From an uncultured Alphaproteobacteria bacterium (GTDB lineage: Bacteria; Bacteroidota; Ignavibacteria; OLB7), in assembly GCA_964455525.1 (NCBI GenBank), contig CAYVWR010000003.1, forward strand, positions 323,475-387,474: a stretch of 64,000 nucleotides of DNA, read 5' to 3'. Under the pieces are notes generated by a model, which saw only the letters and a program-made list of their open reading frames with translations, searched no databases and had not been told where the DNA came from. Within the stretch, counting starts at the first letter, position 1; every line of letters starts with the position of its first letter. Made by a program: the position numbers and the translations under genes. Below are positions 1,287 to 27,891 of the stretch, one piece after another.

Positions 1287-1313
1287 GCCAGTGGCTTCCG
1301 TGGCGAACATCCC

Positions 1314-2453: not shown

Positions 2454-2577
2454 ATCCCGCACGATCGCCGTGCCGCCGATGCCATGCAGAGCACAGGGGG
2501 ATTCCTGTGCTATCCTTCCGGCGACCTTCGGCTGCGATCTGCCGCAGCATTCCGGCGACCGAACCTTATCTACCGAT

Positions 2578-3747
2578 ATGTCCTCTACTGCTCCGCTGGT
2601 TCTGCATATCACAAACATCCCGACGCCGTACCGGCTGCCGTATTATCGTACGGTGAGCCGGAATCTGGAGGCGGGAGGGATCGGCTTTCATGTCTTCTTT
2701 CTGGGACAGGGGAAGCGCCCACGCGAGTGGAAGATCGGTCAGGACGACTTGCACGGATTCCCTTATACCCTTAACGGCGGCGGGTTATCGAATGCGTATC
2801 GGAATATCGTGGATGCCATCGGCACGATGCGGCCATCGGTGGTTGTGCTTGCCTGGGCAATGGACCCGCTGGCGCTCAGGATTCTGCTGTACTGCCGCAT
2901 CAGAAGGATTCCCTGTATCCTCTTTACCGGCGAGACGACCGGCACCGCCGCCGGACGCAGCTATGCCCCGATCCGTGCGCTCTCGCGCAAACCCTTCTTC
3001 TGGCTGGCCGATGGCTTTGTGACCTATGGCACGCGCTCAACCGAATATCTGGTGGAGAACGGCGTGGCCCCCGGGCGGATAAGCACAGGGCTTAATGTTG
3101 TCGATACCGGGAACTTCCGCAATAATGTCGAGGAGCTTCGGCGCAGCGGAGCCGCTGGCATCGAGCGGGACCGCTACCGGATGCCGGACGGCAGGCCGTT
3201 CCCTTATCACCTGCTGATGGTGAACTATATGATACCGGGCAAGGGGATCAGCTCGACGCTGCTCGCCCTGAAAAGCCTTGGTCGCACCGATGTTGCCCTG
3301 CATATCGTTGGGTCGGGACCTCGCGAGGATGCACATCGTGCCATGGTGCAATCCGAGGGGATGAACCAGTATGTGTTCTTCCATGGCTACAAGCAGACCT
3401 CGGAACTGTTCATCTTCTACGCTCTTGCCGATCTGTTCCTGTTCCCCTCCTCGATCGATGTCTTTGGCCTGGTGATGGCCGAGGCGGCGGCGGCCAGCCT
3501 TCCGGTGATCGCCTCGATGCATTCCGGTGGGACAGTGGATGTGATCGATCCCGGCGTGAACGGCCTTATCGTGGACCCCCGGGCCACTGCACAGTATGCC
3601 TCTGCCATCGCCCGGCTGCTCGATGACCCGGAGATGCGCCGGGCGATGGGTGCCGCCGGACGTGACCGTTCGCTCCACTTTTTGACACTTGAAGAGAGCG
3701 CTGAACGCTATCAGCGTGCTATCTTAAGGATCGTAGGTTGCACGTAG
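2578..3747 (+). CDS. Glycosyltransferase family 4, paralog of the preceding gene.
   Basis: N-terminus LVLHITNIPTPYRLPYY parallels LILYITNLPTPYRLPLY of the upstream gene. C-terminal motif DVFGLVMAEAAAASLPVIAS...VDVIDPGVNG. Start moved to the internal ATG at 2578. Confidence 0.7.
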   Translation: MSSTAPLVLHITNIPTPYRLPYYRTVSRNLEAGGIGFHVFFLGQGKRPREWKIGQDDLHGFPYTLNGGGLSNAYRNIVDAIGTMRPSVVVLAWAMDPLALRILLYCRIRRIPCILFTGETTGTAAGRSYAPIRALSRKPFFWLADGFVTYGTRSTEYLVENGVAPGRISTGLNVVDTGNFRNNVEELRRSGAAGIERDRYRMPDGRPFPYHLLMVNYMIPGKGISSTLLALKSLGRTDVALHIVGSGPREDAHRAMVQSEGMNQYVFFHGYKQTSELFIFYALADLFLFPSSIDVFGLVMAEAAAASLPVIASMHSGGTVDVIDPGVNGLIVDPRATAQYASAIARLLDDPEMRRAMGAAGRDRSLHFLTLEESAERYQRAILRIVGCT

Positions 3748-3845
3748 CCGGTTCAACCTGAGAGCTTCTGGAGCACCCCTCCGCCGGGCATTCCGCGCGG
3801 CGATCTCCGGGGCGCCTCCCTATGTTTCCAGTCAGGTTGTACCTC

Positions 3846-5021
3846 ATGAGCAATGCAGACGATTCAATACCGACGCCGAGGCCTCGCCTCCTCATCATCG
3901 GACCTCTCCCTCCTCCCTATATCGGGCCGGCCGTCGCTACCGAGCGGCTCGTCGCATCCCCGATCATGCATTCCATGTTCGATGTCGATCTGCTGAACAC
4001 CGGCGATCCTGGCGGGGAGGACGACATCGGCCAGCTTAGCCTGCATAACATACGGGAGGCTCTATCGCAGGCCATGCGGTATCTGGGACGCCTTATAAGA
4101 AAACGCCCTGATGTGATCTATGTGTCGATCGCACGCGGCTTCTGGGGCTTTCTCCGCGATGTCTGCTTTCTCCTTCCTGCAAAGCTGTTCGGCGTCCGTT
4201 CGGTGATCCATCTGCGCGCCGGCCGCTTCGATCTTATCCATGATGATGGTCTGCGCGGCCGCCTGCTTGCACGGGTCGGCCTGTGGTGCACAACGTATGC
4301 GGTGGTGCTTGGCGAGACCGTACGGGGCATCTTCGGCGATTTCATCGCGCAGGATCGGGTTGTGGTTGTGCCCAACGGCATCGATCTGGAAGCATGGCCC
4401 AGACCGGGCGATCGCGAGCAGTCCCACGATACAGGGGAGCAGCAGGGGCGCTTTCATCTCGTCTATCTTGCCAACCTGTTCTCCGACAAGGGGGCGCATA
4501 TCCTGTTGCAGGCACTGCCGCAGATTATCGCACGCTGCCCCGATGTGCTTGTATCGTTTGCAGGAGCATGGCTCAACGCGGAGTATCGCGAGCAGTGCCT
4601 GGGGCTGGTACAGACCAATGGATTGGAACACAATGTCCGGTTTGTAGGCGTGGTACGGGGGGAGGCAAAACGCGAGCTGCTCCTTTCGGCCGATGTCAGC
4701 GTTTTTGTGCCGATAAAGCCGGAAGGGCTGCCGTGGGTGGTGCTGGAGGCGATGGCCTGCTGCAAACCGGTGGTGGGAACACCACAGGGGACGATGAAGG
4801 AGGTGATCGTGGATGGGGAGACAGGATACCTTGTGCCGCCGGAGGATGTGGGGGCGCTTACCGAGACGCTGCTTCTGCTGGCTGCCGATCCAGAGCGTCG
4901 GCGGCGCATGGGCGCGTCTGCTAGAGCACGCGTTGAAACCGTGTATGCCGAGACCGAGTGCCATAAAAGGCTGGCCGCAACTGCGATGAGGGCGATTCAG
5001 GGCCCGGGCGCAGGGCGATAA
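3846..5021 (+). CDS. Glycosyltransferase family 4.
   Basis: Motif EGLPWVVLEAMACCKPVVGTPQGTMKEVIVDGETGYLV is a GT1 EX7E-like region. The start is ambiguous (3822 or 3846). Confidence 0.65.
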   Translation: MSNADDSIPTPRPRLLIIGPLPPPYIGPAVATERLVASPIMHSMFDVDLLNTGDPGGEDDIGQLSLHNIREALSQAMRYLGRLIRKRPDVIYVSIARGFWGFLRDVCFLLPAKLFGVRSVIHLRAGRFDLIHDDGLRGRLLARVGLWCTTYAVVLGETVRGIFGDFIAQDRVVVVPNGIDLEAWPRPGDREQSHDTGEQQGRFHLVYLANLFSDKGAHILLQALPQIIARCPDVLVSFAGAWLNAEYREQCLGLVQTNGLEHNVRFVGVVRGEAKRELLLSADVSVFVPIKPEGLPWVVLEAMACCKPVVGTPQGTMKEVIVDGETGYLVPPEDVGALTETLLLLAADPERRRRMGASARARVETVYAETECHKRLAATAMRAIQGPGAGR

Positions 5022-5121
5022 GGGGGGCGTACTCAGGCCGCCGGGACGTGTCGGCTCGTTGGCAGATCTCCCCGGACGGGCTCCTGTGCAGGGGCCTGGC
5101 TCTAACAACCAAGAATGACTT

Positions 5122-7073
<1,952 letters not shown>

Positions 7074-7077
<4 letters not shown>

Positions 7078-8243
7078 GCAAGAAAGGGATGGAAGGCAGG
7101 GAGAATATGGCCGACACGCAACTGTTCGAGCGGTCTCTGACAAGGTTGCGCCAGTGGATAGAGCGCCAGGATTTTGCCGGTATCGAACCGCATGATGCTC
7201 TTACCAGCCCGTTGATGCGGCATACGCTGCTCGGACGCAGCCGATTTCTCCGGCTGGCAGCGTTGCAGGGATTGCGGCGGCTGCCGGTGAATATCCGTCC
7301 GATGCTCGGCATCAGGCCGCAGATCAATGCTATCAGCATCGGCTGGGGGCTGAAGGCCTATGCGCTTATCAACGATGAGGGGGCGCGGAAGCGAATTGAT
7401 TGGGGACTTGAACGTCTTAGGGAATGCCAGATTGCTGGGTATAGCGGCGCCTGCTGGGGCTATTATTTCGGCTGGCAGACCCGTGCCGGAATGAAGCCCG
7501 CCAACCTGCCGATCATCGTCTCGACGGCGTTCATCGGATCGGGATTGCTGGATGTCTACGAGCGATACGACCGCCAGGAGTGTTTGCGCTGGGCACGAAG
7601 CGCATGCGATTTCATCCTCAAGGATCTGAACCGATCGCCGGGGGAGCGAGGGTTCTGTTTCAGCTACAGCCCAACCGACCACGAGCAGGTATTTAATGCC
7701 TCGATGCTCGGGGCACAGTTGCTGGCGCGTGTCGGCTCGATCACCGGCGAGCAGGAACTGCTCGATGCTGCGCGCCAGGCCGTGGAGTTCACGATCGACC
7801 ACCAGTCGCCCGATGGCTCATGGCGGTATGGTCTGGAGAAGCATTGGGCGTTCATCGATAATTTCCATACCGGATACGTGCTGGAATGTCTGCGCGATTA
7901 TATCCGGTATACCGGCGATACACGATTTCAGGATGCGCTGGCACATGGATGGGAGTTCTATCGCGATAATTTCTTTCAGGATGGCCGTATCCCGAAGTAT
8001 TATCACAACCGGCTTGAGCCTATCGACTCCCATGCCGCAGCGCAGGCAATCGTGACATTGCTTGATTTTAACGACCCTGAAACCGCTGCTTCGGTAGCAC
8101 GATGGAGCATCGAGCATATGCAGGCCGATGGCGGTTACTTTATCTATCAAATTCGCCGCCGGTATTCTAATCGCATTCCCTATCTTCGCTGGTCAAATGC
8201 CTGGATGCTCTATGCGCTTGCAAGGATGATAGTCAAAACGTAA
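7074..8243 (+). CDS. Hypothetical Trp-rich protein, possibly a polysaccharide-modifying enzyme. It overlaps the asnB stop by 4 bp (ATGA).
   Basis: ORF of 389 aa coupled to asnB by an ATGA overlap. No recognisable catalytic motif. Confidence 0.4.
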
Positions 8244-8447
8244 TTTCATCACCGGGAGTCCAAAACCCCAACCAGGTCCGAGTTTCTACAGGTCCAAATC
8301 TTCATTATCTGCGCATATACCCCCCCGCCCTTTACGAGACGGTGGCGTAGTCAGGCATTGTCGTTGCTGTAAAGAGCGCCGACACGGAGATGTGCCCCCC
8401 CTACATCTCGAATGAGCATGTCATAAACTGATATTGATAGGCTCGCT

Positions 8448-9503
8448 TTGCACATACGTCTCTGGATCGATCTCGATAATTCTCCTCATGTGCCCCTGTA
8501 CGCGCCCCTTATACGGTTTTTGCGTGAACGGGGGTGGCAGATTCGTATTACCGCTCGAGATTTTGCACAGACGCTTGACTTAGTGGAGCAGTTCGCGCTG
8601 GATGCTACGGCAGTTGGAGCGCACGCCGGTCGAAGCAAGCTGAAAAAGGTCGCCAACCTTCCGGTCCGTGCCCTGCAACTGGTGCAGACGGTTCGGTCGT
8701 TCAAGCCGCAGGTGGCCTTAAGCCACGGGTCGCGCACCCAGGCTATCGCATCGCGGATGCTCGGCATCCCGCAGGTTGTGATGTTCGATTACGAGTGGAC
8801 CGAGATGTCTATCCTGAGGCGCCTGGCGAGCTTCCTGCTCTGCCCGCGTGCCCTGACACCGGAACGGCTCTCCGAGGCGGGCATTCCGCTGGAGAAGGTG
8901 AGCTGGTACGATGGTTTCAAGGAGGATCTGTATCTGCCGGACTTTGTCCCCGACCCCGGATTTCGTGCCTCGATAGGGGTTGAACAGGGGAGGCGGCTGG
9001 TAACGATTCGTCCGCCGGGATTGATCGGCAACTATCACGATCCACGAAGCGAGGCGATCTGTCGTCGTGTAATAGCTGAGGCGGCAGGCGACCCGGAGAA
9101 TCATCTGGTGATTCTTCCAAAGACACATGTTGAGCGGCAGTTGGTTGATGCGTCGCTTCCGGAAAGGCCGCGTGCGGCCGTGACGATTCCGGAGCGTGCG
9201 CTTCCCGGGCTTCAACTGCTCTATAGTTCCGATATCGCCATCAGCGGCGGCGGAACGATGAACCGGGAATCGGCGTTGCTGGGAGTTCCAACCTACAGCA
9301 TCTTCACCGGCCGCCGCGCGGCCATCGATGAAGAGCTTGCCCGGCAGGGCCGCCTTACCTTCCTCAGCTCACCGGAGGATCTGACGATGATCCGCTGGTC
9401 GCGCCGGGACGCGCCGCACAAACTCTCGCGCCGAGCGGATGTGCTGCTACAGGTAACGGATATGATCGGGGCGTTTGCGCTGGGCGGCACGGTTCCGGCG
9501 TAA
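8448..9503 (+). CDS. DUF354-like protein (GT-B/epimerase-like fold) with a TTG start codon.
   Basis: N-terminus IRLWIDLDNSPHVPLY matches the DUF354 N-terminal consensus (..IWIDI.N.PHV). The codon at 8448 is TTG. Confidence 0.5.
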   Translation: MHIRLWIDLDNSPHVPLYAPLIRFLRERGWQIRITARDFAQTLDLVEQFALDATAVGAHAGRSKLKKVANLPVRALQLVQTVRSFKPQVALSHGSRTQAIASRMLGIPQVVMFDYEWTEMSILRRLASFLLCPRALTPERLSEAGIPLEKVSWYDGFKEDLYLPDFVPDPGFRASIGVEQGRRLVTIRPPGLIGNYHDPRSEAICRRVIAEAAGDPENHLVILPKTHVERQLVDASLPERPRAAVTIPERALPGLQLLYSSDIAISGGGTMNRESALLGVPTYSIFTGRRAAIDEELARQGRLTFLSSPEDLTMIRWSRRDAPHKLSRRADVLLQVTDMIGAFALGGTVPA

Positions 9504-9796
9504 CGGTGGAGGGGAGTGAGAAAACCCTTCGGGAATGGGGGACCATCCCTGAAGGGACGACGAGATCCGTGCGGTTGGCCCCATCTGGTGGGGGTGATAC
9601 GCATGGTTTGCTCGGGGATGTACAGAGCTACGGCTTGGTGCCCTCTGTCTGGTGTTGCGATCTGCTATCATTGTTTTCGATGGGATTATGCAGGCTTTTC
9701 GCCGAAAGCAATGAGATTTGATATCGACATCACCTGTACGGCTGGTTGAAGCCGAGCGTTGCAAACGTTCTTCATCTATATGTTGAGATCAAGGCT

Positions 9797-11230
9797 ATGC
9801 GTGTGATTCGATCGTTAGGACCTACTAAACTGGCTCTTGCCGCCCTTGATACTACCGTACTTGCCGCAGTGGCGGCGGCGATTCTGATCGTACGAAGCGA
9901 GTTCTCCCACTACACCATCGTATTGAACGAGGTGCTCTTTTTCTTTGCCTTCTCGCTTATTGCGGTGCTGGTGTTTCGCGAGTTCCATCTGTATCGGCAC
10001 AAGGTGTTCTCCACAAGCGCTCATCAGATGGTGGGGCTGGCAAAGGGCATGCTCTGGGTGGGCATCCTCCAGATGTTCGTGATCTTCCTGATAAAGGATA
10101 GCGCCGTCATCGATTATAGCCGCACCCATGTTGTGCTCTTTCTGATCGGCGGCTGGGGAATGCTCTCCCTTGTGCGCCTGCTCGCCTATAAGTTTGCCTC
10201 CCGGCGCTTCGCCTCGGCGCTCCCGGCATCCCGTAAGGTGCTTATCATCGGTGCCGGACGAGCCGGACAGAAGCTTGCTACCCGTATCCAGGATAGCCCC
10301 GAGCTTGGCCTTAGCATCGCATGTTTTGCCGATGATGATCCGGGGAAGATCGGGCGGCAGCTCTTCGGCCGTATGGTGGAAGGTCCGGTGCACAATGTGC
10401 CCGATCTGGTGCGGCGCCATGGCGTTCAGGAGATCCATATCGCCATGAACTCCGTGGAGTATAGCCGCCTGCTGGAGATCATCGAGATGAGCCGCAGCAC
10501 CGATCTGCCGGTGACCGTTACCGCCGATCACTTCCGTATCGTTCACGACAAGATCGATACAAGCGAATATACCTTCGTTGACTCGCTTACGCTCCGTCCC
10601 ACCCGTGGCGAGCACCGTCCGAGCCGTACGCTGAAGCTGTTGTTCGATGTGATCGGTGCCGGCGTTATCCTTCTGCTGCTTTCTCCGCTGCTTGCGGCGA
10701 TCGCTATCGCGGTGAAGCTCAGTTCCAAGGGGCCGATCTTCTTCAGCACCGAGGTGGTGGGAAAGAATGGACGGCTTTTCCGCTGGTATAAGTTTCGGAC
10801 GATGATCGTCAACAACAATCCCGATATCCACCGGAAATATGTGGAGCAGCTTATCAAGCAGAACTCCGCCACCAAGAAGCTGGATCGCGATCCGCGCATC
10901 ACGCGGGTGGGAGCAATCCTGCGCAAGTACAGCCTGGACGAGCTGCCGCAGCTCTTCAATGTGATTCGTGGCGAGATGTCGCTGATCGGCCCACGCCCAT
11001 GCCTCCAGTACGAGTACAATCAGTTCGACGACTGGCACCGCAGACGCTTTGCGGTTACCCCCGGCATGACCGGGCTGTGGCAGGTGTTTGGTCGCAACCG
11101 CAGCGATGTAAGCTTCAACGACTCTATCATTCTGGATCTGTACTACATACAGAACCATTCGATCTGGCTCGATATCAAGATTGCTTTCAAGACAATCCCA
11201 GTTGTTCTATTCGGACGCGGAGGAGCGTAA
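9797..11230 (+). CDS. Polyprenyl glycosylphosphotransferase (bacterial sugar transferase, WbaP/EpsB-like initiating enzyme).
   Basis: N-terminal TM helices. C-terminal domain LLLSPLLAAIAIAVKLSSKGPIFF...KFRTM...DELPQLFNVIRGEMSLIGPRP is the bacterial sugar transferase signature. Confidence 0.8.
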   Translation: MRVIRSLGPTKLALAALDTTVLAAVAAAILIVRSEFSHYTIVLNEVLFFFAFSLIAVLVFREFHLYRHKVFSTSAHQMVGLAKGMLWVGILQMFVIFLIKDSAVIDYSRTHVVLFLIGGWGMLSLVRLLAYKFASRRFASALPASRKVLIIGAGRAGQKLATRIQDSPELGLSIACFADDDPGKIGRQLFGRMVEGPVHNVPDLVRRHGVQEIHIAMNSVEYSRLLEIIEMSRSTDLPVTVTADHFRIVHDKIDTSEYTFVDSLTLRPTRGEHRPSRTLKLLFDVIGAGVILLLLSPLLAAIAIAVKLSSKGPIFFSTEVVGKNGRLFRWYKFRTMIVNNNPDIHRKYVEQLIKQNSATKKLDRDPRITRVGAILRKYSLDELPQLFNVIRGEMSLIGPRPCLQYEYNQFDDWHRRRFAVTPGMTGLWQVFGRNRSDVSFNDSIILDLYYIQNHSIWLDIKIAFKTIPVVLFGRGGA

Positions 11231-11233
11231 TCC

Positions 11234-12283
11234 TTGGTTACTATAGGAATCATCGGATGCGGTTATTGGGGGCCGAACCTTGTTCGCAACTTCAGCGGCA
11301 TCCCCGGCACACGTGTAAAGACGATCAGCGATCTGCGCATCGGGCGCCTCGATGGCATCGTGCAAAGTTATCCCGGCATCGCGATCACTACCGACTTTCA
11401 GGAGGTGCTCGATGACCCGGAGATCGACGCGGTGGTGGTGGCAACGCCGGTGGAAACCCATTTCACGATTGCCGAGGCGGCTCTGCGCGCCGGCAAGCAT
11501 GTTTTTGTGGAGAAGCCCCTTACCCGGAATGCTGCCGAGGCATGGGCGCTGGTAGAGCTGGCAAGGAGCAGCGGAAAGGTTCTGGTGGTAGGACATGTGT
11601 TCCAGTTTGCGCCGGGTGTGCGCCGTATCAAGCGCGAGATCGATGCCGGTATCCTGGGCAACGTCCATCATATCACCTCGACTCGTATCAATCTTGGCCC
11701 GCCCGATCCGAAGCTCGATGTGATCTGGGATCTTGGCCCGCACGATTGCTCCATCGTGCTTCATCTGCTCGGAGAAACGCCGAGCCAGGTGAGCGCACAG
11801 GGGATGAGCTACAAGCGCAATGGAGTGATCGACAATGCCCATATCGAGCTTGCGTTCCCAAGCGGCGCCACTGCCCATATCCATGTAAGCTGGCTCTCGG
11901 CGAACAAGATGCGGCTGATGCAGGTGTTCGGCCAGACCGGCTCGATCACCTACGACGAGATGCTGGCGCTGGATGGCAAGGTGAAGCGTTACGATAACGG
12001 CATCGACAACCGGCTGACCGTGGGGGACAAGGAGACGATCCAGCTTGGCTACTCCACTGGCGATATCCATGTGCTCCAGCTTGAACAACATGAGCCGCTC
12101 CGTATGGAGTGTGCCGAGTTTGTTCGTGCCGTGGGCGGCGGCCCGGTGCCGCCAAACGATGGGGTGATGGGCGCACGTGTGGTGGAGCTTCTGGAGAACG
12201 TCTCGCGCATCGCCTCGGATGGCCTCATCCAGAGAGCGCAGGTGGCCGAGATACAGGGCCAGGATGGTGCTGTATCCCTCTAG
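11234..12283 (+). CDS. Gfo/Idh/MocA-family NAD(P)-dependent sugar oxidoreductase.
   Basis: N-terminal Rossmann GIIGCGYWGPNLVRNF, then AVVVATPVETH and EKPL motifs. Confidence 0.8.
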   Translation: MVTIGIIGCGYWGPNLVRNFSGIPGTRVKTISDLRIGRLDGIVQSYPGIAITTDFQEVLDDPEIDAVVVATPVETHFTIAEAALRAGKHVFVEKPLTRNAAEAWALVELARSSGKVLVVGHVFQFAPGVRRIKREIDAGILGNVHHITSTRINLGPPDPKLDVIWDLGPHDCSIVLHLLGETPSQVSAQGMSYKRNGVIDNAHIELAFPSGATAHIHVSWLSANKMRLMQVFGQTGSITYDEMLALDGKVKRYDNGIDNRLTVGDKETIQLGYSTGDIHVLQLEQHEPLRMECAEFVRAVGGGPVPPNDGVMGARVVELLENVSRIASDGLIQRAQVAEIQGQDGAVSL

Positions 12284-12332
12284 CCGATGCGCTGCATTGG
12301 TTGGTTGATCAGGAGAACGTATCGATACGGAC

Positions 12333-12365
12333 GGGGCGCCGGTAGAGCCGGCGCCCCGATTTAAT
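12333..12365 (+). terminator. GC-rich hairpin (10-bp perfect stem, 5-nt loop) followed by a weak T tract, just downstream of the oxidoreductase gene.
   Basis: The stem arms at 12333-12342 and 12348-12357 are perfectly complementary around the loop TAGAG at 12343-12347. The hairpin is followed by GATTT. Confidence 0.35.
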
Positions 12366-12428
12366 GCCGAGCGCTGATAACCCAGGCATCATAGGACGGC
12401 GCTGGCAGGAATAGAGATATCCTTCATA

Positions 12429-13328
12429 TTGCGAGATATGGTCGAACGCTATCGCACGATGAAGCTGATCCGGGAGACGGAGGAACGTATCCTCGAGCTT
12501 TTCTCCCAGGGGAAGCTGTTCGGGACGACACATACCTGTATAGGGCAGGAAGCCGATGCTGTCGGCATTATCGCGCATCTCGGCGAGAAGGATATCGTCT
12601 TCTCGAACCACCGGTGCCACGGGCATTACATTGCCTATACCGGAGATGTCACCGGCCTGGTGGCAGAGCTTATGGGGAAGGAGAGCGGGGTCTGTGGCGG
12701 CATCAGCGGAAGCCAACATCTCTGCCGGGGAAATTTTCATTCAAATGGCATTCAAGGGGGCATCGTCCCGAATGCCGTCGGGATGGCCTATGCCGAGAAA
12801 CGGCTCGGCCGCGATAGCGTTACTGCCGTCTTCCTGGGCGATGGTACGCTCGGCGAGGGGGTCGTCTACGAGGCGATGAACCTTGCGAGCCTCTGGGCCG
12901 CTCCGGTACTCTTTGTGATCGAGAACAATTATTACGCGCAGAGCACGCCATCGCATCTTCAGATAGCCGGGGATATCACGGCCCGCCCCAGGGCGTTTGG
13001 CATCGAGACCGTGGAGCTTACCACAACCGATGTGGAGACGATCTACGAAGCTGCCGGTGAGCTTGTCGCGACCATACGCCGTGAGAGCCGCCCTGCCTGT
13101 CTGGTGATCAATACCTATCGGCTTGCGCCGCATAGCAAAGGGGATGATAACCGCGATCCTGCCGAGATCGAGGAGCGTAGAGCCTTCGATCCGCTTGCGG
13201 TAGCAGCGCTCCGGCTTGATCCGGCCCTTGTGGAATCCATTGCTGTGGAATGCCGTGCCGCTGTCGATGAAGCTGTGGAGCGCGCCTCGCTTAGCGGCGC
13301 TGAGAATCAATCGCTGGAGGTTGCCTAG
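12429..13328 (+). CDS. Thiamine-diphosphate-dependent 2-oxoacid dehydrogenase E1 component, alpha subunit.
   Basis: TPP motif FLGDGTLGEG...VLFVIENNYYAQST (GDG-x25-NN). N-terminal RETEERILELFSQGKL...GQEA. Confidence 0.8.
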   Translation: MRDMVERYRTMKLIRETEERILELFSQGKLFGTTHTCIGQEADAVGIIAHLGEKDIVFSNHRCHGHYIAYTGDVTGLVAELMGKESGVCGGISGSQHLCRGNFHSNGIQGGIVPNAVGMAYAEKRLGRDSVTAVFLGDGTLGEGVVYEAMNLASLWAAPVLFVIENNYYAQSTPSHLQIAGDITARPRAFGIETVELTTTDVETIYEAAGELVATIRRESRPACLVINTYRLAPHSKGDDNRDPAEIEERRAFDPLAVAALRLDPALVESIAVECRAAVDEAVERASLSGAENQSLEVA

Positions 13329-14378
13329 GTGAGCCAGATGGTAGTGGAACAAGCGAACGAGACGATCACGGTGGCCGGGGCCATCAACAAGGCCCTGCAC
13401 CGGCTCTTCGAGATCGACCCCAGAGTCTATCTCGTGGGGGAGGATCTGCTCGACCCGTATGGTGGTGCCTTCAAGCTCTCCAAGGGGCTTTCCTCCCGCT
13501 GGCCCGATCGTGTTCTCCCGACGCCGATCAGCGAAGGGGCCATCGCCGGAGTCTGCGGCGGCATGGCGCTGCGTGGCCTGCGGCCGATTGCCGAGATCAT
13601 GTTCGGCGATTTCATCACGCTCGCGTTCGATCAGATCGTCAACCATATCGCGAAGTTCCGGCCGATGTACAACGGGCAAGTGCGCTGCCCGGTTACAATC
13701 CGCACCCCGATGGGGGGAGGCCGCGGTTACGGCCCCACCCATAGCCAGTCGCTTGAAAAATTTCTTGTCGGCGTTCCCGGCATCACCGTGGTGGCGCTCA
13801 GCCATCTGCATGATATTCCCGCGTTTTATGAGGCGGCCGTGCTCGGCGGCGACGATCCGACGATCGTCATAGAGCATAAGCTGCTCTACGGCCAGCAGGC
13901 GGTTGATATAAGGGGCGGACGCATGCAGGAGTTTTCCGTTGCTGCCAGCACCGCCCCGTTTCCTACGATTGTCCTTTCGCTCAGCAACTTCAAGCGCGCC
14001 GATGTTACGGTGGTTACCTATGGTGGCAGCACACGCCTGGCGCTTGCCACTGCCAGAAGGATGCTGATCGAACATGAGATCTTTGTGGATGTGGTTGTGC
14101 TCGGGCAGCTTGCCCCGATGCGGACCGATGAGGTGGTGGAAGCCGTGCGCCGTTCGCGGAGGGCTGTGACATTGGAGGAGGGGACGCAACGTTTCGGCAT
14201 TGGTGCCGAGATCGCCAGCGTCCTTGCCGAGCGGCTGTGGGGCTTGCTCCTTGCGCCGGTCCGGCGGGTGGCCGCCGCCGATGCCATCATTCCCGCCGCC
14301 CGGAATCTGGAGGATCAGATGCTTCCGAACGCGGAGCGGCTGGAACGGGCTATCCTGCAATCCATGGAATCCGCATAA
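13329..14378 (+). CDS. 2-oxoacid dehydrogenase E1 component, beta subunit (transketolase-like).
   Basis: Follows directly after the E1 alpha stop. Shows transketolase C-terminal-like architecture and the AGAINKAL motif. Length 349 aa. Confidence 0.75.
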   Translation: MSQMVVEQANETITVAGAINKALHRLFEIDPRVYLVGEDLLDPYGGAFKLSKGLSSRWPDRVLPTPISEGAIAGVCGGMALRGLRPIAEIMFGDFITLAFDQIVNHIAKFRPMYNGQVRCPVTIRTPMGGGRGYGPTHSQSLEKFLVGVPGITVVALSHLHDIPAFYEAAVLGGDDPTIVIEHKLLYGQQAVDIRGGRMQEFSVAASTAPFPTIVLSLSNFKRADVTVVTYGGSTRLALATARRMLIEHEIFVDVVVLGQLAPMRTDEVVEAVRRSRRAVTLEEGTQRFGIGAEIASVLAERLWGLLLAPVRRVAAADAIIPAARNLEDQMLPNAERLERAILQSMESA

Positions 14379-14478
14379 CAACAACGTCTCCGCCACTCTC
14401 CGTTGCAAGAGCAGGGGGCCTTGGGCCTCCGGTGTCGATACACGGCGGGAGGCCCGGAGCATCTCTACCGAGCTATAC

Positions 14479-15588
14479 ATGATTGAGATCGTAATACCCC
14501 AGCTCGATGCCAACAGCGAAACGGCCAAGCTTGTGCGGTGGGAAGCCGAGGATGGCGCAGTGGTCGCCAGGGGGGAACAGCTTTGTACCGTGGAGACCAG
14601 CAAGGCGATCTACGAAGTGGAGGCCGAGGAGGCTGGTATCCTTGTGCAGACCTATGCGGAGGGGAGCACCGTCAACTTCAATGTGCCGATAGCCTATATC
14701 GCTGCCGATGCCGAGGAGGCCGGGCGGCTTCGTGCCAAGGGGGCCGCCGCCGATGCTCCGGCGGACAATGGTGGCGCCGAGATCAGCGCAACCAAGAAGG
14801 CGGCGGAGCTGGCTAGGAAACACCGGGTCGATCTGGCGCTTGTCCAGAGCGAGGGCATCGTTACCGAGGGGGATGTGCAGGCGTATCTGAAACAGAGCGG
14901 CAAGTTGGCACCGGAACGTCCGGTGCCTGGCGCGCTGCCATCGGCGGTGAAGCGGGTTGTGGTGATCGCCGCAGGTTATGGTGCCATGCAGGTGATCGAT
15001 ATCCTTCTCAACTACCCGGATGTACGGGTGGTTGGCTGCCTTGATGATGATGTGTCGATGCATGGCCGGGAGATCTATGGTGCGCCGGTCGTCGGGAATA
15101 TATCCGATATCGCCACGTTCTGGGATGATCGGTTCTTCGATTACGCCATCATCGCTATCTCTACGAATATCCGGCTCCGCAAGAAGTTCTACGACGAGTG
15201 CGCCCGTCTTGGTATACCGATGATGAATGCCATCGACCCGACGGTACGGATCAACCGTGGCGCGGTGATCGGTACCGGTAATGTGATCTGTAGCCAGTCC
15301 CATATCGGTGTCGCTGCGCAGATCGGCGATAACAACTTTATCAGCGCCCACAATAGCATCGATCATCATAACGTGTGGGGATCGCATATCACCACCGGGC
15401 CGAACTGTGCTACGTCGGGTGGTGTAAGCGTGGGCGATGAGGTGAAGTTCGGCACAGGCGTCTTTATCCAGCCGGGCGTTACGATCGGCCGTGAGTCGAT
15501 CATCGCTTCCGGCGCGATCATCATCCGGTCGGTGCCGGAACGCCATGCGGTAAAGGTGCGGCTTCAGACGGAGATCACGCCGCTGTAG
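14479..15588 (+). CDS. Fusion protein. A lipoyl domain and a peripheral-subunit-binding domain are joined to a left-handed beta-helix (hexapeptide) sugar N-acyltransferase of the NeuD/PglD type, in place of an E2 catalytic domain.
   Basis: Lipoyl-lysine context CTVETSKAIYEVEAEEAG. Binding domain ATKKAAELARKHRVDLALVQSEGIVTEGDV. Rossmann-like VVIAAGYGAMQ plus hexapeptide repeats IGDNNFISAHNSI...VGDEVKFGTGVFI. Confidence 0.65.
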   Translation: MIEIVIPQLDANSETAKLVRWEAEDGAVVARGEQLCTVETSKAIYEVEAEEAGILVQTYAEGSTVNFNVPIAYIAADAEEAGRLRAKGAAADAPADNGGAEISATKKAAELARKHRVDLALVQSEGIVTEGDVQAYLKQSGKLAPERPVPGALPSAVKRVVVIAAGYGAMQVIDILLNYPDVRVVGCLDDDVSMHGREIYGAPVVGNISDIATFWDDRFFDYAIIAISTNIRLRKKFYDECARLGIPMMNAIDPTVRINRGAVIGTGNVICSQSHIGVAAQIGDNNFISAHNSIDHHNVWGSHITTGPNCATSGGVSVGDEVKFGTGVFIQPGVTIGRESIIASGAIIIRSVPERHAVKVRLQTEITPL

Positions 15589-15808
15589 ATGATGATGTCG
15601 GCCGCGCGGGTGCCTGTACAACGGGTTCTCGGCGATGGCGCGAAGTGCCCGCAACAACAGAAGGCAGATATCTGGACTGGCGGCTGCGCCTGTGGCCGCT
15701 GCGGTTGCAGGCACCCTATACCGGCTCCGGGGGCGCTATCCTTGTTTCCGGGAACACGGTGCCCGGCGCCATCGGCCGGGGACTCTTCTCATTTTGAATC
15801 TCTTTTTC

Positions 15809-16927
15809 ATGGCATCGACTGTTCTGATAACCGGGGGCGCTGGTTTTATCGGTTCGCATACGGCGGACCGCCTTTTACGCCTTGGCCATCGTGTACGGGT
15901 GATCGACAACCTTCTGAAGCCCGTGCATCTGCGCGGCAAGCCCGGCTATCTCTCCCCGGAGATAGAGTTTGTAGAAGGTGATGTGCGCGATAAGGATGCG
16001 CTCCGTGCGGCAATGCAGGGAGTTGATGTGATCTATCACCTTGCGGCATATCAGGATTATCATCGCGATTTCTCCACGTTCTTTCATACCAACGCGGTCT
16101 CTACGTCGCTTATCTACGAGATCATCGTCCAGGAGAATCTGCCGATACAGAAAGTGATCGTGGCCTCCTCGCAGTTTGTGCAGGGGGAGGGATTGTATCA
16201 TGATGCCGATGGGAGGCTTGTGGCTCCTACGCTTCGGCCGCTGGAACAGCTTCAGCGCGGCGAATGGGAGTTCTCGGACCACCAGGGGCGTTCCATGCAG
16301 TGGGGATGGACGCCGGAGACCCATGCAAATCCGGCCAATGCCTATGCGATGAGCAAACATTCGCAGGAGATCCAGGCCATCCGCTTTGGCCGCCGCTATG
16401 ATATCCCATCGGTTGCGCTCCGCTATTCCATCGTGCAAGGCTCGCGGCAATCGTTTTATAATACCTACTCGGGCGCGGCACGTATCTTCTGCCTGCATTA
16501 TTACTTCGATAAGGCTCCGACGCTGTACGAAGATGGCAGGCAGCGGCGCGATTTTGTGAACATCCACGATGTTGTGGATGCCAATGTGCTGGTGATGAAC
16601 GATGCCCGTGCCGATTACGAGGTCTTCAATGTCGGGGGCGGGGTGCCTTACACCGTGCGAGACCTTGCCGCTATGGTGGCGCGTGCCTTTGGCAAGGAGC
16701 ATATCGAGCCAAAGATTCCCGGCAGCTTCCGGTTTGGTGATACGCGCAATGCCTGCTCCGATATCACAAAGCTGCGCTCGCTCGGCTGGGAGCCGAAGCG
16801 GACAATGGAGGATTCGGTGCGGGAATACATCGACTATCTCCAGGCGCAGGAGAATATCGACGATATCCTGGAATATGCCGAGGCGACGATGAAACAGGAA
16901 CATGTGGTGCAGCAGGCTGTGGCCTAG
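15809..16927 (+). CDS. NAD-dependent nucleotide-sugar epimerase/dehydratase.
   Basis: VLITGGAGFIGSH glycine-rich loop. YxxxK context AYAMSK. Confidence 0.8.
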   Translation: MASTVLITGGAGFIGSHTADRLLRLGHRVRVIDNLLKPVHLRGKPGYLSPEIEFVEGDVRDKDALRAAMQGVDVIYHLAAYQDYHRDFSTFFHTNAVSTSLIYEIIVQENLPIQKVIVASSQFVQGEGLYHDADGRLVAPTLRPLEQLQRGEWEFSDHQGRSMQWGWTPETHANPANAYAMSKHSQEIQAIRFGRRYDIPSVALRYSIVQGSRQSFYNTYSGAARIFCLHYYFDKAPTLYEDGRQRRDFVNIHDVVDANVLVMNDARADYEVFNVGGGVPYTVRDLAAMVARAFGKEHIEPKIPGSFRFGDTRNACSDITKLRSLGWEPKRTMEDSVREYIDYLQAQENIDDILEYAEATMKQEHVVQQAVA

Positions 16928-17029
16928 ATCGCTGCCGGGGCGTGGCACAGGTTCCGAACGCTGATGAGGGGAGCCAAGATCCAGGCAGCGTGCGTCCGCG
17001 TTGCTCCAGGCCTCCGGCGAACCTCTCCC

Positions 17030-18094
17030 ATGCAATCAACCAACAGATTGAGCGGTAGTGCCATGCAGCTTCGTCCGAATGATCGGCGGTGGCTCGATCT
17101 GATAGCGACGCACCCTTCTGCAACGATCTTTCATCATCCCGCGTGGATCGGGGTGCTGGAGCAGTGTTACGGGTTTGCTGCGACTGTGGTTGGCCTTGCC
17201 GGTGCCGATGGTCTGCTGGCAGGGGGAATTCCGGTGATGGAGGTGCATCGAGCGCTGCGTGGCCCCCGGCTTATCGCCCTTCCGTTCAGCGATCATTGCG
17301 CCCCGGTGCTCGCTGATGATGCGTTGATGCCGGAGCTTCTCGCCGCCTTGGCAGCATATAGACGGGAACGGCAGGCGAATCGTCTGGAGGTGCGGTGGCC
17401 GTTCGAGGAACAGGCCGGTGTTTATCGCGGCGAGAGCTTGTACCTCCACCAGACCAGGCTGTCGGCCGATCCCGGCGATCTGTTCGAGCGCTTTCATCGC
17501 ACCCGCGTACAGCAGCCGATTCGCGCAGCACGTCGGCATGGGGTGGTAGTACGCCGTGCCGAGAGCATCGAAGATCTCCGTACTTTCTACCGGATGCATC
17601 TGCGGACACGCGCAAGGCTTGGAACCCCTGTGCAGCCCTTTCGTTTTTTTCGGCTGCTCTGGGAACATCTTATCGCAACGGGAATGGGGCATATCCTTAT
17701 CGCCGAACGCGATGAACGGGCAATGGCCGCTGCGCTCTTTCTTGGCTGGAACGGTGTGCTCACCTACAAGTTCAGCGCCTCGCATCGTGCCGACTGGCCC
17801 TATGCTCCCAACCATGCGTTGCTCTGGGAGGCGATCCGCTGGGGCTGCGAACATGGTTTCCGATTGTTCGACTGGGGGCGTACCGAGTTGCATCATGAGG
17901 GGTTGCGCCAATTCAAGCGGGGGTGGGATGCCGGGGAGGTTCTTTCGGCGAGCACGATCCTTGCCGATGCTCCGGTATCCGTCGATGCAGGACGTTCTGT
18001 GATGGCCAGGACCATGATGGCCGGATTCATCAAACACTCTCCTGAGTGGGTGTGCAGGACCATCGGTGAGCTATTCTATGAACACTTCGCCTGA
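17030..18094 (+). CDS. FemAB-like/GNAT-fold acyltransferase of the kind associated with polysaccharide loci.
   Basis: Overall FemAB-like pattern (FHHPAWIGVLE...LFLGWNGVLTYKF...LFDWGRTE). Start codon uncertain (17030 or 17063). Confidence 0.5.
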   Translation: MQSTNRLSGSAMQLRPNDRRWLDLIATHPSATIFHHPAWIGVLEQCYGFAATVVGLAGADGLLAGGIPVMEVHRALRGPRLIALPFSDHCAPVLADDALMPELLAALAAYRRERQANRLEVRWPFEEQAGVYRGESLYLHQTRLSADPGDLFERFHRTRVQQPIRAARRHGVVVRRAESIEDLRTFYRMHLRTRARLGTPVQPFRFFRLLWEHLIATGMGHILIAERDERAMAAALFLGWNGVLTYKFSASHRADWPYAPNHALLWEAIRWGCEHGFRLFDWGRTELHHEGLRQFKRGWDAGEVLSASTILADAPVSVDAGRSVMARTMMAGFIKHSPEWVCRTIGELFYEHFA

Positions 18095-19370
18095 AGATAC
18101 GAGCGGTCCAAACGTTCTCCGGGATGCGGCTCTGAATGCTCCCTGGAACTTCTGGCGTCTGCTGCACCCCGATATCGGGATCGAGGAGTGGCGCGAGGCA
18201 TCCGCCTATGCCTTTCATCTGCTCGGCGATCTGCCCGTGGCGCTGGCCGGAGCTGATGATCCTGTGGAGATCGTCGATCGTATCCTTACCGAGCGTCAGT
18301 TCGGACCGGACCACTGGAGGCTCTCCCCGGCCAAGCATGCCTATTATGCCTTTGCTCGCCCGATCCTTCCCGCCCGGCTTCGTCCGGCTTTACGCCGGCT
18401 GCTTCTTGTGCCGCAGCAACGTACATCGCTCCTGCGATGGCCGATCGAAGATCGTTACGTCCGCTACCAGTTTGCCATGCTGCGCTATCTGCTGGAGCAG
18501 ACCGGCGAGCCTGCTATACCGTATCTGCGGCTCTGGCCCGGCAATCGGCGGTATGCGCTGGTCCTGACCCATGATATCGAGACCGCACGCGGGCAGGAGT
18601 TTGTGCTTGAGGTGGCGGCGCTGGAGGAGCGGTATGGGTTCCGCTCCGCATTCAATTTTGTGCCGGAGGATTATTCGATCAACGCCCGATTGATCGGCCA
18701 GCTTCGCGAGCGGGGATTCGAGATCGGCGTGCATGGCCTGCGGCATAACGGCCGGCTTTTTCTTTCGCGCCGCGATTTCAATCGCGATGTTCCTCGTATC
18801 AATGCTCATCTGAAGCGGTGGGATGCCGTTGGGTTCCGTGCTCCGTTCACCCATCGCAATCCGGCCTGGATGCAGGATCTGGACGTCGAGTACGACTCCA
18901 CGTTTTTCGATACCGATCCGTTCGAGACGATCAATGGCGGCACGATGAGCATCTGGCCCTTTATGATGGGGCATTTTGTGGAACTTCCCTTTACTCTGCC
19001 GCAGGATCATACGCTTCTGTCGATGGCCGGGGAACGCTCGCCCAGAGTGTGGCTGGAGAAGATCAATTTCATAGAACGGCATGGCGGGATGGCAATGATG
19101 ATAACCCATCCCGATTATCTGCTCGATCCAACGTTTTTTGCTGTGTACGAGGAGTTCCTCCGTACGATGAGCCAGCAGAGCGGATACTGGCATGCGCTGC
19201 CACGCGATGTTGCCCGCTGGTGGCGCTGCCGCCTGCAACTCTCCGGTTACGATCAGGAGTCCATGCTTGCCGCGCTTCCCGGCTCGGCGGTCGGCATGAT
19301 CCGCCGGGGCGATGAGGGGGCGGCTGTGATGCATGCCGATGGATCGCTTTTTGTTGGGGCGGCAGGATGA
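18066..19370 (+). CDS. Polysaccharide deacetylase (NodB-type/carbohydrate esterase 4-like).
   Basis: LVLTHDIET...FEIGVHGLRHN matches NodB motifs (TFDD-like Asp, His-His). Overlaps the upstream gene by 29 bp. Confidence 0.55.
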   Translation: MSYSMNTSPEDTSGPNVLRDAALNAPWNFWRLLHPDIGIEEWREASAYAFHLLGDLPVALAGADDPVEIVDRILTERQFGPDHWRLSPAKHAYYAFARPILPARLRPALRRLLLVPQQRTSLLRWPIEDRYVRYQFAMLRYLLEQTGEPAIPYLRLWPGNRRYALVLTHDIETARGQEFVLEVAALEERYGFRSAFNFVPEDYSINARLIGQLRERGFEIGVHGLRHNGRLFLSRRDFNRDVPRINAHLKRWDAVGFRAPFTHRNPAWMQDLDVEYDSTFFDTDPFETINGGTMSIWPFMMGHFVELPFTLPQDHTLLSMAGERSPRVWLEKINFIERHGGMAMMITHPDYLLDPTFFAVYEEFLRTMSQQSGYWHALPRDVARWWRCRLQLSGYDQESMLAALPGSAVGMIRRGDEGAAVMHADGSLFVGAAG

Positions 19371-24621: not shown

Positions 24622-25153
24622 ACCGTAAACGTGGAATCTACACAGGTTTTAAGCATCCCAGATTGTGTCTGACAATTTGAATCGTCTAGCGACGAGATAC
24701 CTGTTGGGAACAGGTGTGCAATGCCGCCGAAACGGTGCCAATCGCTCTTCAGTGTACGGAAGAAGCTCCCACTGAGAGCAGTATCCCAGCAGGTGCTCCA
24801 ACGGTTTATGCTCCGGGTAACGGCATTGGCTGAACAGAACTCAGCAATGCCAATGGCCGTATACTGGGGCGATCGGGGGGCGTGACTGGCCGCGTGTGCT
24901 GCGAGTCGGTTGTGCGTACCCGTTGGCACAGTGTTCTTGTGCACGCGGAAAGCCAGCAACCATGACCTGCATCGACGTTCTGCTGGATGGTCTCGGCAAA
25001 TACCGCAGCGTTAGATGTACGATATGAAAAAAAGTTAACGTCGGGTTGCAAATGCATTGCATTGGCTCATCGCTCAGGGTATGTTCCCTCTGCGTGTACA
25101 ACCGCCAATGATCTCGCTGCTCATCCAGTATCGTTCTAAAGAAAGGTGCATGT

Positions 25154-27277: not shown

Positions 27278-27438
27278 TCCCCAACGTGCCGATTCGTGCT
27301 TTGTGAAGATATCCCGTGGAAACGATGCGGGATGATATGTCTGGGCTGTGATTGTCCCAGCAAACTCTTGTTGCCCTCTGTCCTCTCGTGATAGTGCAGG
27401 GGAGCCAGTATATCAAGTACACCACAACAACAATTTCT

Positions 27439-27891
27439 ATGAAACGAAGCCAAGTGCGATCGCTGTTTATTCGTGTCTGTGATCCGATGGGAATGCTGAT
27501 AGGTGATGCCACTGTGTCGGTGCGGAGCAGTGATGGGGTTGTGGAGCGTGTTGCCTCGGGTGTGGATAGGATAGGGCATGGTGTGAAGAAGGAGTATAAT
27601 CATTATATCAAAGATATTGAGCCAGGAACATATATCCTGGAGATCAGCCGACCAGGGTCGATACTGGAGCGCTTGGTAGTTGATATGCCGGATACTGGTC
27701 GGTATCTGGAATGTATGCTCCACGCAAAGGATAGTGAGTATGGGTATCGGGCAGGCCGGAGCGCTGGATATTGCACGGGAGCACTGGAAGTAGCCGTGAT
27801 GCATGCTGGCAGAGTTGAAGATTGTGATCTGCGTGGTACTCGGGAAGTCGCTGAGAGTTTTGGGCTGCACCTGTCCGGGATATTTGAATAG
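27439..27891 (+). pseudogene. Truncated duplicate of the 5' end (~150 codons) of the giant S8 gene, created by the tandem duplication. It ends GIFE* where the intact gene continues GIFKNADG.
   Basis: Identical to 30310-30762 apart from junction bases. The reading frame runs into the repeat junction and stops at 27891. Confidence 0.6.

Follow-up and report, generated by a model that had tools for sequence, protein, structure and literature searches.

A lipoyl domain fused to a NeuD/PglD-type acyltransferase behind an E1 pair: a predicted coenzyme A-bypassing route to acylated sugars in a bacterial polysaccharide locus

The DNA considered here is a stretch of 64,000 nucleotides (the window) from an uncultured bacterium deposited as Alphaproteobacteria and placed by GTDB in the Ignavibacteria lineage OLB7 of the Bacteroidota (assembly GCA_964455525.1, contig CAYVWR010000003.1, positions 323,475 to 387,474). 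Our subject is a trio of plus-strand genes that lies inside a polysaccharide locus: two genes for the alpha and beta subunits of an E1 enzyme of the 2-oxoacid dehydrogenase type, followed by a gene for a fusion protein of 369 amino acids (aa) at 14479..15588, in which Pfam, NCBIfam, a family profile and AlphaFold identify, in order, a lipoyl domain, a peripheral subunit-binding domain (PSBD), a PglD_N-type Rossmann-like domain and a left-handed beta-helix acyltransferase domain. Directly upstream of the trio is a Gfo/Idh/MocA oxidoreductase gene (11234..12283, plus strand; PF01408, E=3.7e-26). The original prediction had described exactly this arrangement, an E1 pair ahead of an E2-like scaffold whose catalytic core is replaced by a NeuD/PglD-type hexapeptide domain, within a polysaccharide locus and beside a Gfo/Idh/MocA gene, and domain and motif analyses bear out each of its elements.

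E1 alpha (299 aa, 12429..13328; the public gene call starts at 12438) carries the thiamine diphosphate (ThDP)-binding domain PF00676 (E=2e-51), and E1 beta (349 aa, 13329..14378) carries Transket_pyr (PF02779, 5e-29) and Transketolase_C (PF02780, 5e-21). The top match of E1 alpha in the PDB is human pyruvate dehydrogenase (PDH) E1 alpha at 4e-36, with branched-chain 2-oxoacid dehydrogenase (BCKDH) behind at 1e-24; that of E1 beta is the Pyrobaculum E1 beta 1ik6 (1e-50), and other E1 beta subunits match as well. Against NCBIfam, E1 alpha reaches 227 bits with TIGR03182 (PDH_E1_alph_y) and E1 beta 211.6 bits with PRK09212, under the respective cut-offs of 393.85 and 321. By both kinds of search the pair is nearer to PDH than to BCKDH. 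The ThDP motif GDG...N begins at residue 137 of E1 alpha and is kept in 57 family members, as are His34 and His235 (motifs GTtH and tYRl..HSK), which we take to correspond to His63 and His263 of human E1 alpha. In E1 beta, the PISE glutamate (TPiSE) and the THSQ histidine (GPTHSQ), presumably the equivalents of Glu59 and His128 of the human beta subunit, are kept across 57-60 family members. Judged from these alignments, the E1 residues that serve in activating ThDP and in reducing the lipoyl group are preserved throughout the family. An antisense open reading frame (ORF) of 620 aa runs across the two genes; we regard it as spurious and prefer the Pfam-supported genes of the plus strand.

The fusion gene begins at ATG 14479 (MIEIVIP...) rather than at TTG 14200 of the ORF list, and the public gene call and alignments of homologues agree on this start; a fusion protein of 100% identity is present in public data (P0001). 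Its AlphaFold model has a mean predicted local distance difference test (pLDDT) score of 92. The lipoyl domain occupies residues 1-75 (14479..14703) and matches PF00364 (Biotin_lipoyl) over residues 6-74 with E=1.5e-10. As had been predicted, the lysine in the motif ETSKA is present: it is Lys42 (codon 14602-14604), the predicted lipoylation site, and it is invariant in a 47-sequence alignment that reaches down to 26% identity. In the PDB the lipoyl part matches lipoyl domains of E2 and of the E3-binding protein, E3BP (1zy8_K, 6.8e-10). Biotinylation of Lys42 was considered and rejected: the motif is ETSKA, biotinyl carriers have MKM, the top matches are E2/E3BP lipoyl domains, and an E1, a PSBD and, in relatives, lipA and lipB accompany the domain.

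The PSBD, at residues 104-140 (14788..14898), was found by comparing a family profile with solved PSBDs and from two helices in the AlphaFold model. Pfam does not detect it in the single window sequence, even when the linker (residues 86-154) is searched in isolation at E values up to 10. A profile of residues 100-146 built from 33 family members nevertheless matches solved PSBDs (1w4i, 8.8e-10; 2eq8_C, 6e-6), the model places helices at 106-114 and 130-140 with pLDDT 88-93, and PF02817 (E3_binding) is detected at 2.9e-13 in an archaeal-labeled homologue (locus L062). The loop of the fusion PSBD is three residues shorter than the canonical one. On this profile and model evidence the PSBD is real despite the negative single-sequence search, and the predicted domain stands.

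The remainder of the fusion resembles a nucleotide-sugar N-acyltransferase. Its PglD_N-type domain (residues 158-240, 14950..15198; PF17836 over residues 160-240, E=5.6e-6) aligns with the N-terminal domains of PerB and VioB; in solved relatives this domain binds the nucleotide sugar, and roles have been assigned to residues of the VioB N-terminal domain (PMC9271549). The left-handed beta-helix domain follows at residues 245-355 (15211..15543; Hexapep PF00132, E=7e-9), and the NeuD/PglB/VioB model TIGR03570 spans both (residues 160-358, E=7e-39). By Foldseek, the structure closest to the C-terminal two-thirds of the fusion model is PerB (4eaa; template modeling (TM) score 0.92, root mean square deviation 1.9 Å), followed by PglB-ATD, VioB, WeeI and PglD, all of them amino-sugar N-acetyltransferases. 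His296 (codon 15364-15366) aligns with the catalytic histidines PerB His141, VioB His135 and PglD His125 and is invariant in all 106 full-length family members; the Ser-Gly oxyanion region and the glycines of the nucleotide-sugar site are kept as well. The catalytic domain of canonical E2 enzymes is not seen: Pfam finds no 2-oxoacid_dh domain (PF00198) in the fusion, and the catalytic domain of Escherichia coli AceF has no tblastn match in the window or in 71 fetched loci.

The same fusion proved to be widespread when sought in other loci. A word-indexed search returned about 110 clusters at 90% identity that also combine a lipoyl domain with a beta-helix and that their sources label only as 'biotin/lipoyl-containing protein' or as generic acetyltransferase. 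An exhaustive hidden Markov model search over 1.84 billion representatives gave 861 proteins at E<=1e-30; about 130 of the best 150 clusters (50% identity) are full-length fusions, and all 150 have E<1e-74. A locus scan seeded with a 24-sequence alignment, with one genome per species, placed the fusion at 66 genome loci, from Kapaibacteriota (84% identity; probably the lineage from which the window comes), Bacteroidota, Verrucomicrobiota, Planctomycetota, Acidobacteriota, Chloroflexota, Actinomycetota, Bdellovibrionota and Proteobacteria to two metagenome-assembled genomes (MAGs) labeled archaeal. Cultured carriers include Chryseobacterium cheonjiense, C. profundimaris, Acanthopleuribacter pedis, Halochromatium salexigens and Devosia alba.

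The fusion gene almost invariably comes with its two E1 genes, as a trio. Of the 60 loci with at least 2.2 kb of upstream sequence, 57 have both E1 genes immediately ahead of the fusion; the exceptions, all short MAG contigs, are L009 (no upstream E1), L025 (only an E1 beta fragment) and L057 (E1 3.5 kb away). Across loci, the identity of the fusion to its window counterpart correlates tightly with that of E1 beta (r=0.95) and with that of E1 alpha (r=0.88). In a set of Bacteroidota loci (L057-L060 and L063-L067, including Chryseobacterium and Saprospiraceae) the two E1 subunits are themselves fused in a single ORF of about 645 aa with E1_dh, Transket_pyr and Transketolase_C domains (for example, 8077-10008 of L067), a one-polypeptide arrangement that is unusual for heterotetrameric E1 enzymes.

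The genes around the trio point to an amino-sugar acceptor, since DegT aminotransferases and WbpB-like 3-dehydrogenases flank it in many loci. Of 68 non-redundant module loci, 29-31 have a DegT gene in the flanks that were fetched and 21 have a homologue of the window Gfo/Idh/MocA gene; of the 40 loci that reach 15 kb, 30 carry one or more genes of the Wbp/Vim type. WbpB-like and WbpE-like genes both surround the module in L062, L048, L063, L065, L067, L053, L022 and others.

The strongest evidence, as far as gene content can speak to it, comes from two related operons of eleven genes, L062 (labeled Methanosarcinales) and L048 (labeled Nanoarchaeia), in the order GT2 glycosyltransferase, wecB, lipA, lpd, lipB, E1 alpha, E1 beta, fusion, DegT, a gene similar to the 3-dehydrogenase of uridine diphosphate-N-acetylglucosamine (UDP-GlcNAc), and a second GT2. 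This arrangement suggests that the lysine carries lipoate, that an E3 keeps the arm cycling, and that the neighboring enzymes produce a 3-amino sugar. In L062, scores exceed the NCBIfam cut-offs for lipA (TIGR00510, 352 vs 310 bits), lipB (TIGR00214, 115 vs 84), lpd (TIGR01350, 416.6 vs 408.8) and E1 beta (PRK09212, 369 vs 321). The two operons share 82-95% amino-acid identity, and at least one of the archaeal labels is probably a binning error.

A second informative relative, L067 of the isolate Chryseobacterium cheonjiense RJ-7-14 (NZ_JABBGF010000001.1, E1 and fusion genes at about 287.7-290.8 kb), has the order Wza, Wzc, UDP-GlcNAc 6-dehydrogenase, L-2-hydroxyglutarate oxidase, DegT, fused E1 alpha-beta, fusion, Gfo/Idh/MocA and flippase. 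The oxidase gene (5724-6914; NF008726, 547 bits vs a cut-off of 299) lies between the WbpA-like and DegT genes. In the Wbp pathway, WbpB is reported to recycle NAD+ by reducing 2-oxoglutarate to 2-hydroxyglutarate (Larkin and Imperiali 2009, cited in PMC7468200); since WbpB would then make 2-hydroxyglutarate, an oxidase of this compound is a sensible accessory. Of the 18 ORFs that reach 120 aa in this 21-kb locus, 17 were scanned, and no second beta-helix acetyltransferase is among them; ORFs of this length are absent from the first 26 bases and the last 1.2 kb. With a WbpA/WbpB/WbpE-like set here and no other beta-helix acetyltransferase among the scanned ORFs, the module is the one candidate for the WbpD step. 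The locus also encodes a PP-loop protein, a glutamine amidotransferase and a HisF-family (His_biosynth) protein, which together resemble the WbpG/HisH/HisF set for making acetamidino groups.

Two further relatives have other surroundings. In Devosia alba (L004, JBDUUI010000003.1, 8134-11888 and 11885-21104) the trio is followed by a CmcI-like methyltransferase gene and preceded by a Peptidase_M15 gene, and directly beside it is a block of large unannotated ORFs with phage-tail marks (a weak PhageMin_Tail and a faint CBM_5_12 match); this module may be carried on or beside a prophage. The locus L003/L029 in the 4.36-Mb genome of a Mycobacterium sp. MAG (OZ257262.1) starts with FdtA, a 3,4-ketoisomerase (1-369), and also encodes Wzy, an Acyl_transf_3 protein and a methyltransferase, and there the module may serve a deoxythymidine diphosphate (dTDP)-3-amino-3,6-dideoxyhexose pathway rather than one of the Wbp type.

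In the window itself, the genes from 90 to 19370 are all co-directional, with no convincing intergenic terminator between them, and run in the order of three GT4 glycosyltransferases, an AsnB-type amidotransferase, an unknown protein, a DUF354 protein, a phosphoglycosyl transferase, the Gfo/Idh/MocA oxidoreductase, the trio, a short-chain dehydrogenase/reductase (SDR), a TIGR03019 protein and a deacetylase-like protein. The amidotransferase (5122..7077) is WbpS-like and matches TIGR03108 (eps_aminotran_1) with E=9e-155 and 517 bits, below the cut-off of 817. The DUF354 gene (8448..9503; PF04007, E=2e-30) precedes that of the initiating polyprenyl-phosphate glycosylphosphotransferase (9746..11230; TIGR03025, 381 bits, above the cut-off of 295.55). 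The WbpB-like Gfo/Idh/MocA protein has as its top model the UDP-GlcNAc 3-dehydrogenase NF040723 (E=4e-45), with 154.6 bits under a cut-off of 450. Downstream of the trio are an extended SDR epimerase/dehydratase of 372 aa by the public gene call (15809..16927; PF01370, E=2.4e-38; ORF-list start 15635), a VimA-like acyl/aminoacyl transferase of the FemAB/PEP-CTERM family (16964..18094; TIGR03019, E=5e-31, 108 bits under a cut-off of 260; public start 17063), and a possible, weakly matched VimE-like polysaccharide deacetylase (18066..19370; PF01522, E=4e-4, below the cut-off, with no NCBIfam match). All of these genes are on the plus strand.

This gene block is conserved in the window clade (L005-L008 and L049), in every locus of which the DUF354 gene lies immediately 5' of the phosphoglycosyl transferase gene and the VimE-like gene adjoins the VimA-like gene. 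The SDR gene directly follows the fusion in L005-L009 and L049, and in L010 a weakly matching SDR (26% identity) takes that place. In the Wbp/Vim pathway of Porphyromonas and Tannerella, WbpS is the TIGR03108 amidotransferase, VimA a serine/glycine transferase of the TIGR03019 family and VimE a deacetylase of carbohydrate esterase family 4 (PMC7468200). The WbpB-, WbpS-, VimA- and VimE-like genes around the window module give a cluster that, by annotation, resembles this scheme, and the resemblance to the Wbp pathway extends to the Chryseobacterium and archaeal-labeled loci, with their WbpA/WbpB/WbpE or WbpB/WbpE/2-epimerase sets. Unlike the Wbp/Vim systems, the window holds neither WbpA nor WbpE. 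N-acylation at the window locus is suggested by analogy with the relatives and with the Wbp/Vim pathway.

We propose that amino sugars of surface polysaccharides are probably the substrates of the module, which would acylate them directly from a 2-oxoacid, and, reading from domain and gene content, we favor with some confidence the view that the trio constitutes a CoA-bypassing 2-oxoacid:amino-sugar acyl-transfer mini-complex (CoA, coenzyme A). An E1 alpha2beta2 heterotetramer would dock on the PSBD of the fusion and would decarboxylate the 2-oxoacid on ThDP, pyruvate being the default guess since the E1 is PDH-like. E1 would then reductively acylate the lipoyl group on Lys42, and the acyl-dihydrolipoyl arm would swing into the donor groove of its own beta-helix domain, presumably a trimer. 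There His296 would act as general base, and the acyl group would pass, with no CoA involved, to the amino group of a nucleotide-linked amino sugar, after which E3 would re-oxidize the arm, a housekeeping E3 in the window organism. The module would in this way carry out the WbpD-type N-acetyltransferase step of a pathway, Wbp or Wbp/Vim-like, that leads to 2,3-diamino uronic acids destined for an exopolysaccharide or a linking glycan. We infer the direct transfer from lipoyl arm to sugar from the architecture, and likewise infer the acceptor at the window locus and the identity of the acyl group.

The donor site of the fusion was compared with the acetyl-CoA contacts of VioB. In solved relatives the donor groove binds CoA, and VioB Arg170 neutralizes a CoA phosphate (PMC9271549). 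At the position of Arg170, 103 of 106 members of the fusion family have Glu or Gln; the equivalent of Gly182 is Ala in 92 and that of Asn128 is Ser in 99; the Gly199/Pro201 turn is gone in 103, and a G-x-P-A/G-K/R motif is found in just 3, in an extreme C-terminal region where the alignment is uncertain. Four of the 16 residues reported invariant in Class I N-acetyltransferases differ in the fusion family. The window protein and 42 of the 106 members retain Arg350, which corresponds to VioB Arg189. Stand-alone relatives without E1 neighbors (among them the closest relatives of the beta-helix part, at 50% identity) show the same donor-site changes, and PerB too is without an Arg170 equivalent.

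Several observations weigh against the proposed mechanism. Since the donor-site changes are common to stand-alone relatives, they are no proof that the use of CoA has been lost. The TIGR03570 score of the fusion, 133.4 bits, is under the cut-off of 160.8, and the solved relatives use 4-amino sugars as acceptors, whereas the genes around the trio point to a 3-amino sugar. The PSBD loop is shortened and without the canonical GRI arginine in most bacterial members, the window protein included, so that recruitment of E3 is uncertain, and queries with lipA, lipB and lpd (tblastn, including E. coli Lpd) match nothing in the window. The window likewise holds no DegT aminotransferase, UDP-GlcNAc 6-dehydrogenase or wecB gene, and no aminotransferase is found in the fetched flanks of the closest relatives (L005-L008, L049). 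There is, finally, no obvious reason for a cell to spend an E1, lipoate and an E3 on an acetyl group that is available from acetyl-CoA. These absences from the window are not decisive, because the wbp and vim genes of Porphyromonas gingivalis are on separate loci; the wbp genes other than wbpS presumably lie elsewhere in that genome. In P. gingivalis wbpS is PGN_1234 (PMC7468200).

The cost of such a system for plain acetylation, in dedicated E1 genes and in the lipA, lipB and lpd genes of L062, leads to the alternative that survives best, a possible though doubtful variant that overlaps with the proposed mechanism: the 2-oxoacid would not be pyruvate but 2-oxobutyrate, hydroxypyruvate, glyoxylate or 2-oxoglutarate, and the acyl group one that has no CoA thioester in the cell. 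The window E1 proteins fall far under the PDH equivalog cut-offs (227 vs 394 and 212 vs 321 bits), the WbpB and WbpE steps make and use 2-oxoglutarate, and L067 has its 2-hydroxyglutarate oxidase near the module. On the other side, PDB and NCBIfam searches put the E1 nearer to PDH than to BCKDH, the L062 E1 beta passes the cut-off of the PDH E1 beta subfamily, and the PP-loop/amidotransferase/HisF set of L067, if it makes acetamidino groups, would imply acetyl.

It is less probable, and we think unlikely, that the acceptor at this locus is a hydroxyl of a sugar or of the growing polysaccharide, which would be O-acylated in the manner of NeuD and still by way of the lipoyl arm. The top NCBIfam model, NeuD/PglB/VioB, includes sialic acid O-acetyltransferases, and neither the window nor the fetched flanks of L005-L008 and L049 hold an aminotransferase that would supply the amine. 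Yet the closest solved structures are all N-acetyltransferases, DegT stands beside the module in many other clades, and the product of the window WbpB-like dehydrogenase would need transamination; a remote DegT is plausible as well, given that the Wbp/Vim genes of P. gingivalis are scattered.

More improbable still is that the beta-helix domain serves as a surrogate E2, passing the acyl group from lipoate to CoA and so supplying a local acyl-CoA pool for this or another transferase. The groove of the solved relatives takes CoA (PMC9271549), Arg350 is kept in the window protein and 42 of 106 members, and a precedent for a non-canonical E2 exists in AcoC, whose model NF011457 matches the lipoyl part only. 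Against it stand the retention of the PglD_N nucleotide-sugar domain, the invariance of the amine-deprotonating histidine and the replacement of the CoA-phosphate arginine by Glu or Gln in 103 of 106 members; acetyl-CoA is, moreover, already made by cells, and L067 shows no second acyltransferase for the WbpD step among its 17 scanned ORFs.

Lastly, E1-like pairs proposed to install C-4 acetyl branches from pyruvate (AviB1/AviB2 and Pau11/Pau12; PMC4753412), and the keto-sugar-forming oxidoreductase and SDR that flank the trio, allow a reading in which the E1 pair is a carboligase adding a two-carbon branch to a keto sugar while the fusion is an ordinary acetyl-CoA enzyme with a vestigial or regulatory lipoyl domain, but we consider this highly improbable, as the AviB1/AviB2 systems are described as an E1-like pair only (PMC4753412), the lipoyl domain with its invariant lysine and the PSBD accompany E1 in 57 of 60 loci, the lipoyl-reduction histidines of E1 are conserved, L062 and L048 carry lipA, lipB and lpd in the operon, and invariance down to 26% identity is not to be expected of a vestigial domain.

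Returning to the proposed acyl-transfer complex, its parts come from known families and the wiring is new. Like the complexes of the PDH/BCKDH type, the module has a ThDP-dependent E1 alpha/beta pair with the catalytic Glu and His residues, a lysine at the lipoyl turn, a PSBD between the lipoyl and catalytic parts and, in the operon of one lineage, E3, lipA and lipB; its catalytic part is also expected to be trimeric, with active sites between subunits. Unlike them, it has a single lipoyl domain and a mostly shortened PSBD loop, PglD_N and a left-handed beta-helix replace the chloramphenicol acetyltransferase (CAT) fold of PF00198, no 24-mer or 60-mer core is expected, and the predicted acceptor is a sugar rather than CoA. 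The two-domain fold and catalytic histidine are those of PerB, VioB, PglD, PglB-ATD and WeeI, and the N-terminal lipoyl domain and PSBD, together with the predicted acyl-lipoyl donor, set the fusion apart from this class, whose known enzymes depend on acetyl-CoA and act on 4-amino-4,6-dideoxy sugars. Having no PF00198 domain, the fusion falls outside the E2 family; its below-cut-off score and four changed class-invariant residues make it only a partial match to the Class I N-acetyltransferases. A plausible role for it is that of an E2 with a sugar acceptor.

Other systems share single features with the module. WbpD/WlbB is a stand-alone, acetyl-CoA-dependent beta-helix enzyme without PglD_N, in whose position the module would put an E1 and a lipoyl fusion; WlbB (3mqg) aligns by Foldseek over the helix only, with a TM score to the target of about 0.46-0.50, far below PerB, and the fusion and WbpD/WlbB belong to different subfamilies, being functional analogues at most. 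The acetoin system AcoA/AcoB/AcoC likewise combines an E1 pair with a lipoyl protein that has a non-canonical E2 C-terminus, a precedent for swapping the catalytic module, and its model NF011457 covers residues 3-112 of the fusion, the lipoyl part. The C-terminal part of AcoC has an alpha/beta-hydrolase fold and yields acetyl-CoA, in a catabolic context; that of the fusion is a beta-helix with a sugar-binding domain. With AviB1/AviB2 and Pau11/Pau12 the module shares a PDH-E1-like pair in a sugar cluster, and those pairs, which take a two-carbon unit from pyruvate, are proposed to form a carbon-carbon bond on a keto sugar, whereas the partner of the module is an N- or O-acyl transferase (PMC4753412).

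In the literature searched, no paper was found that describes a lipoyl domain on a transferase of the hexapeptide, NeuD or PglD type, and NCBIfam has no model specific for the lipoyl/beta-helix fusion. To our knowledge, all characterized acyl-transferring lipoyl complexes hand the acyl group to CoA, a textbook case of substrate channeling, and neither AviB1/AviB2 nor Pau11/Pau12 has a lipoyl carrier; the glycine cleavage system and sulfur oxidation use the lipoyl arm differently. On balance, then, the module would be the first complex of the 2-oxoacid dehydrogenase type without an acyl-CoA end product, catalyzing the conversion of a 2-oxoacid, NAD+ and a nucleoside diphosphate (NDP)-amino sugar to CO2, NADH and an NDP-N-acyl sugar. 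If this is true, many phyla use lipoate as a cofactor in making their cell-surface glycans, and the module may install non-acetyl acyl groups that draw on no CoA-thioester pool. It would also explain an unannotated trio of exopolysaccharide, O-antigen and Wbp/Vim-type loci across many phyla, and would provide a CoA-independent acylation tool for glycoengineering.

Downstream of the polysaccharide locus, the window contains two features of other kinds. Three consecutive giant ORFs of 2683, 2888 and 3284 aa occupy 30223-57007 on the plus strand; the second and third have no Pfam match in their first 1000 residues, and the first contains a subtilase (Peptidase_S8) domain. The region 25018-30759 is a head-to-tail tandem duplication with a unit of 2871 bp, of which 2825 nucleotides are exactly identical. 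Each copy holds an identical 707-aa ORF (25154-27277 and 28025-30148) with a hydrophobic, signal-peptide-like N-terminus; this ORF has no Pfam match, and its first copy has no NCBIfam match either. The duplication is either a very recent event or an assembly artefact.

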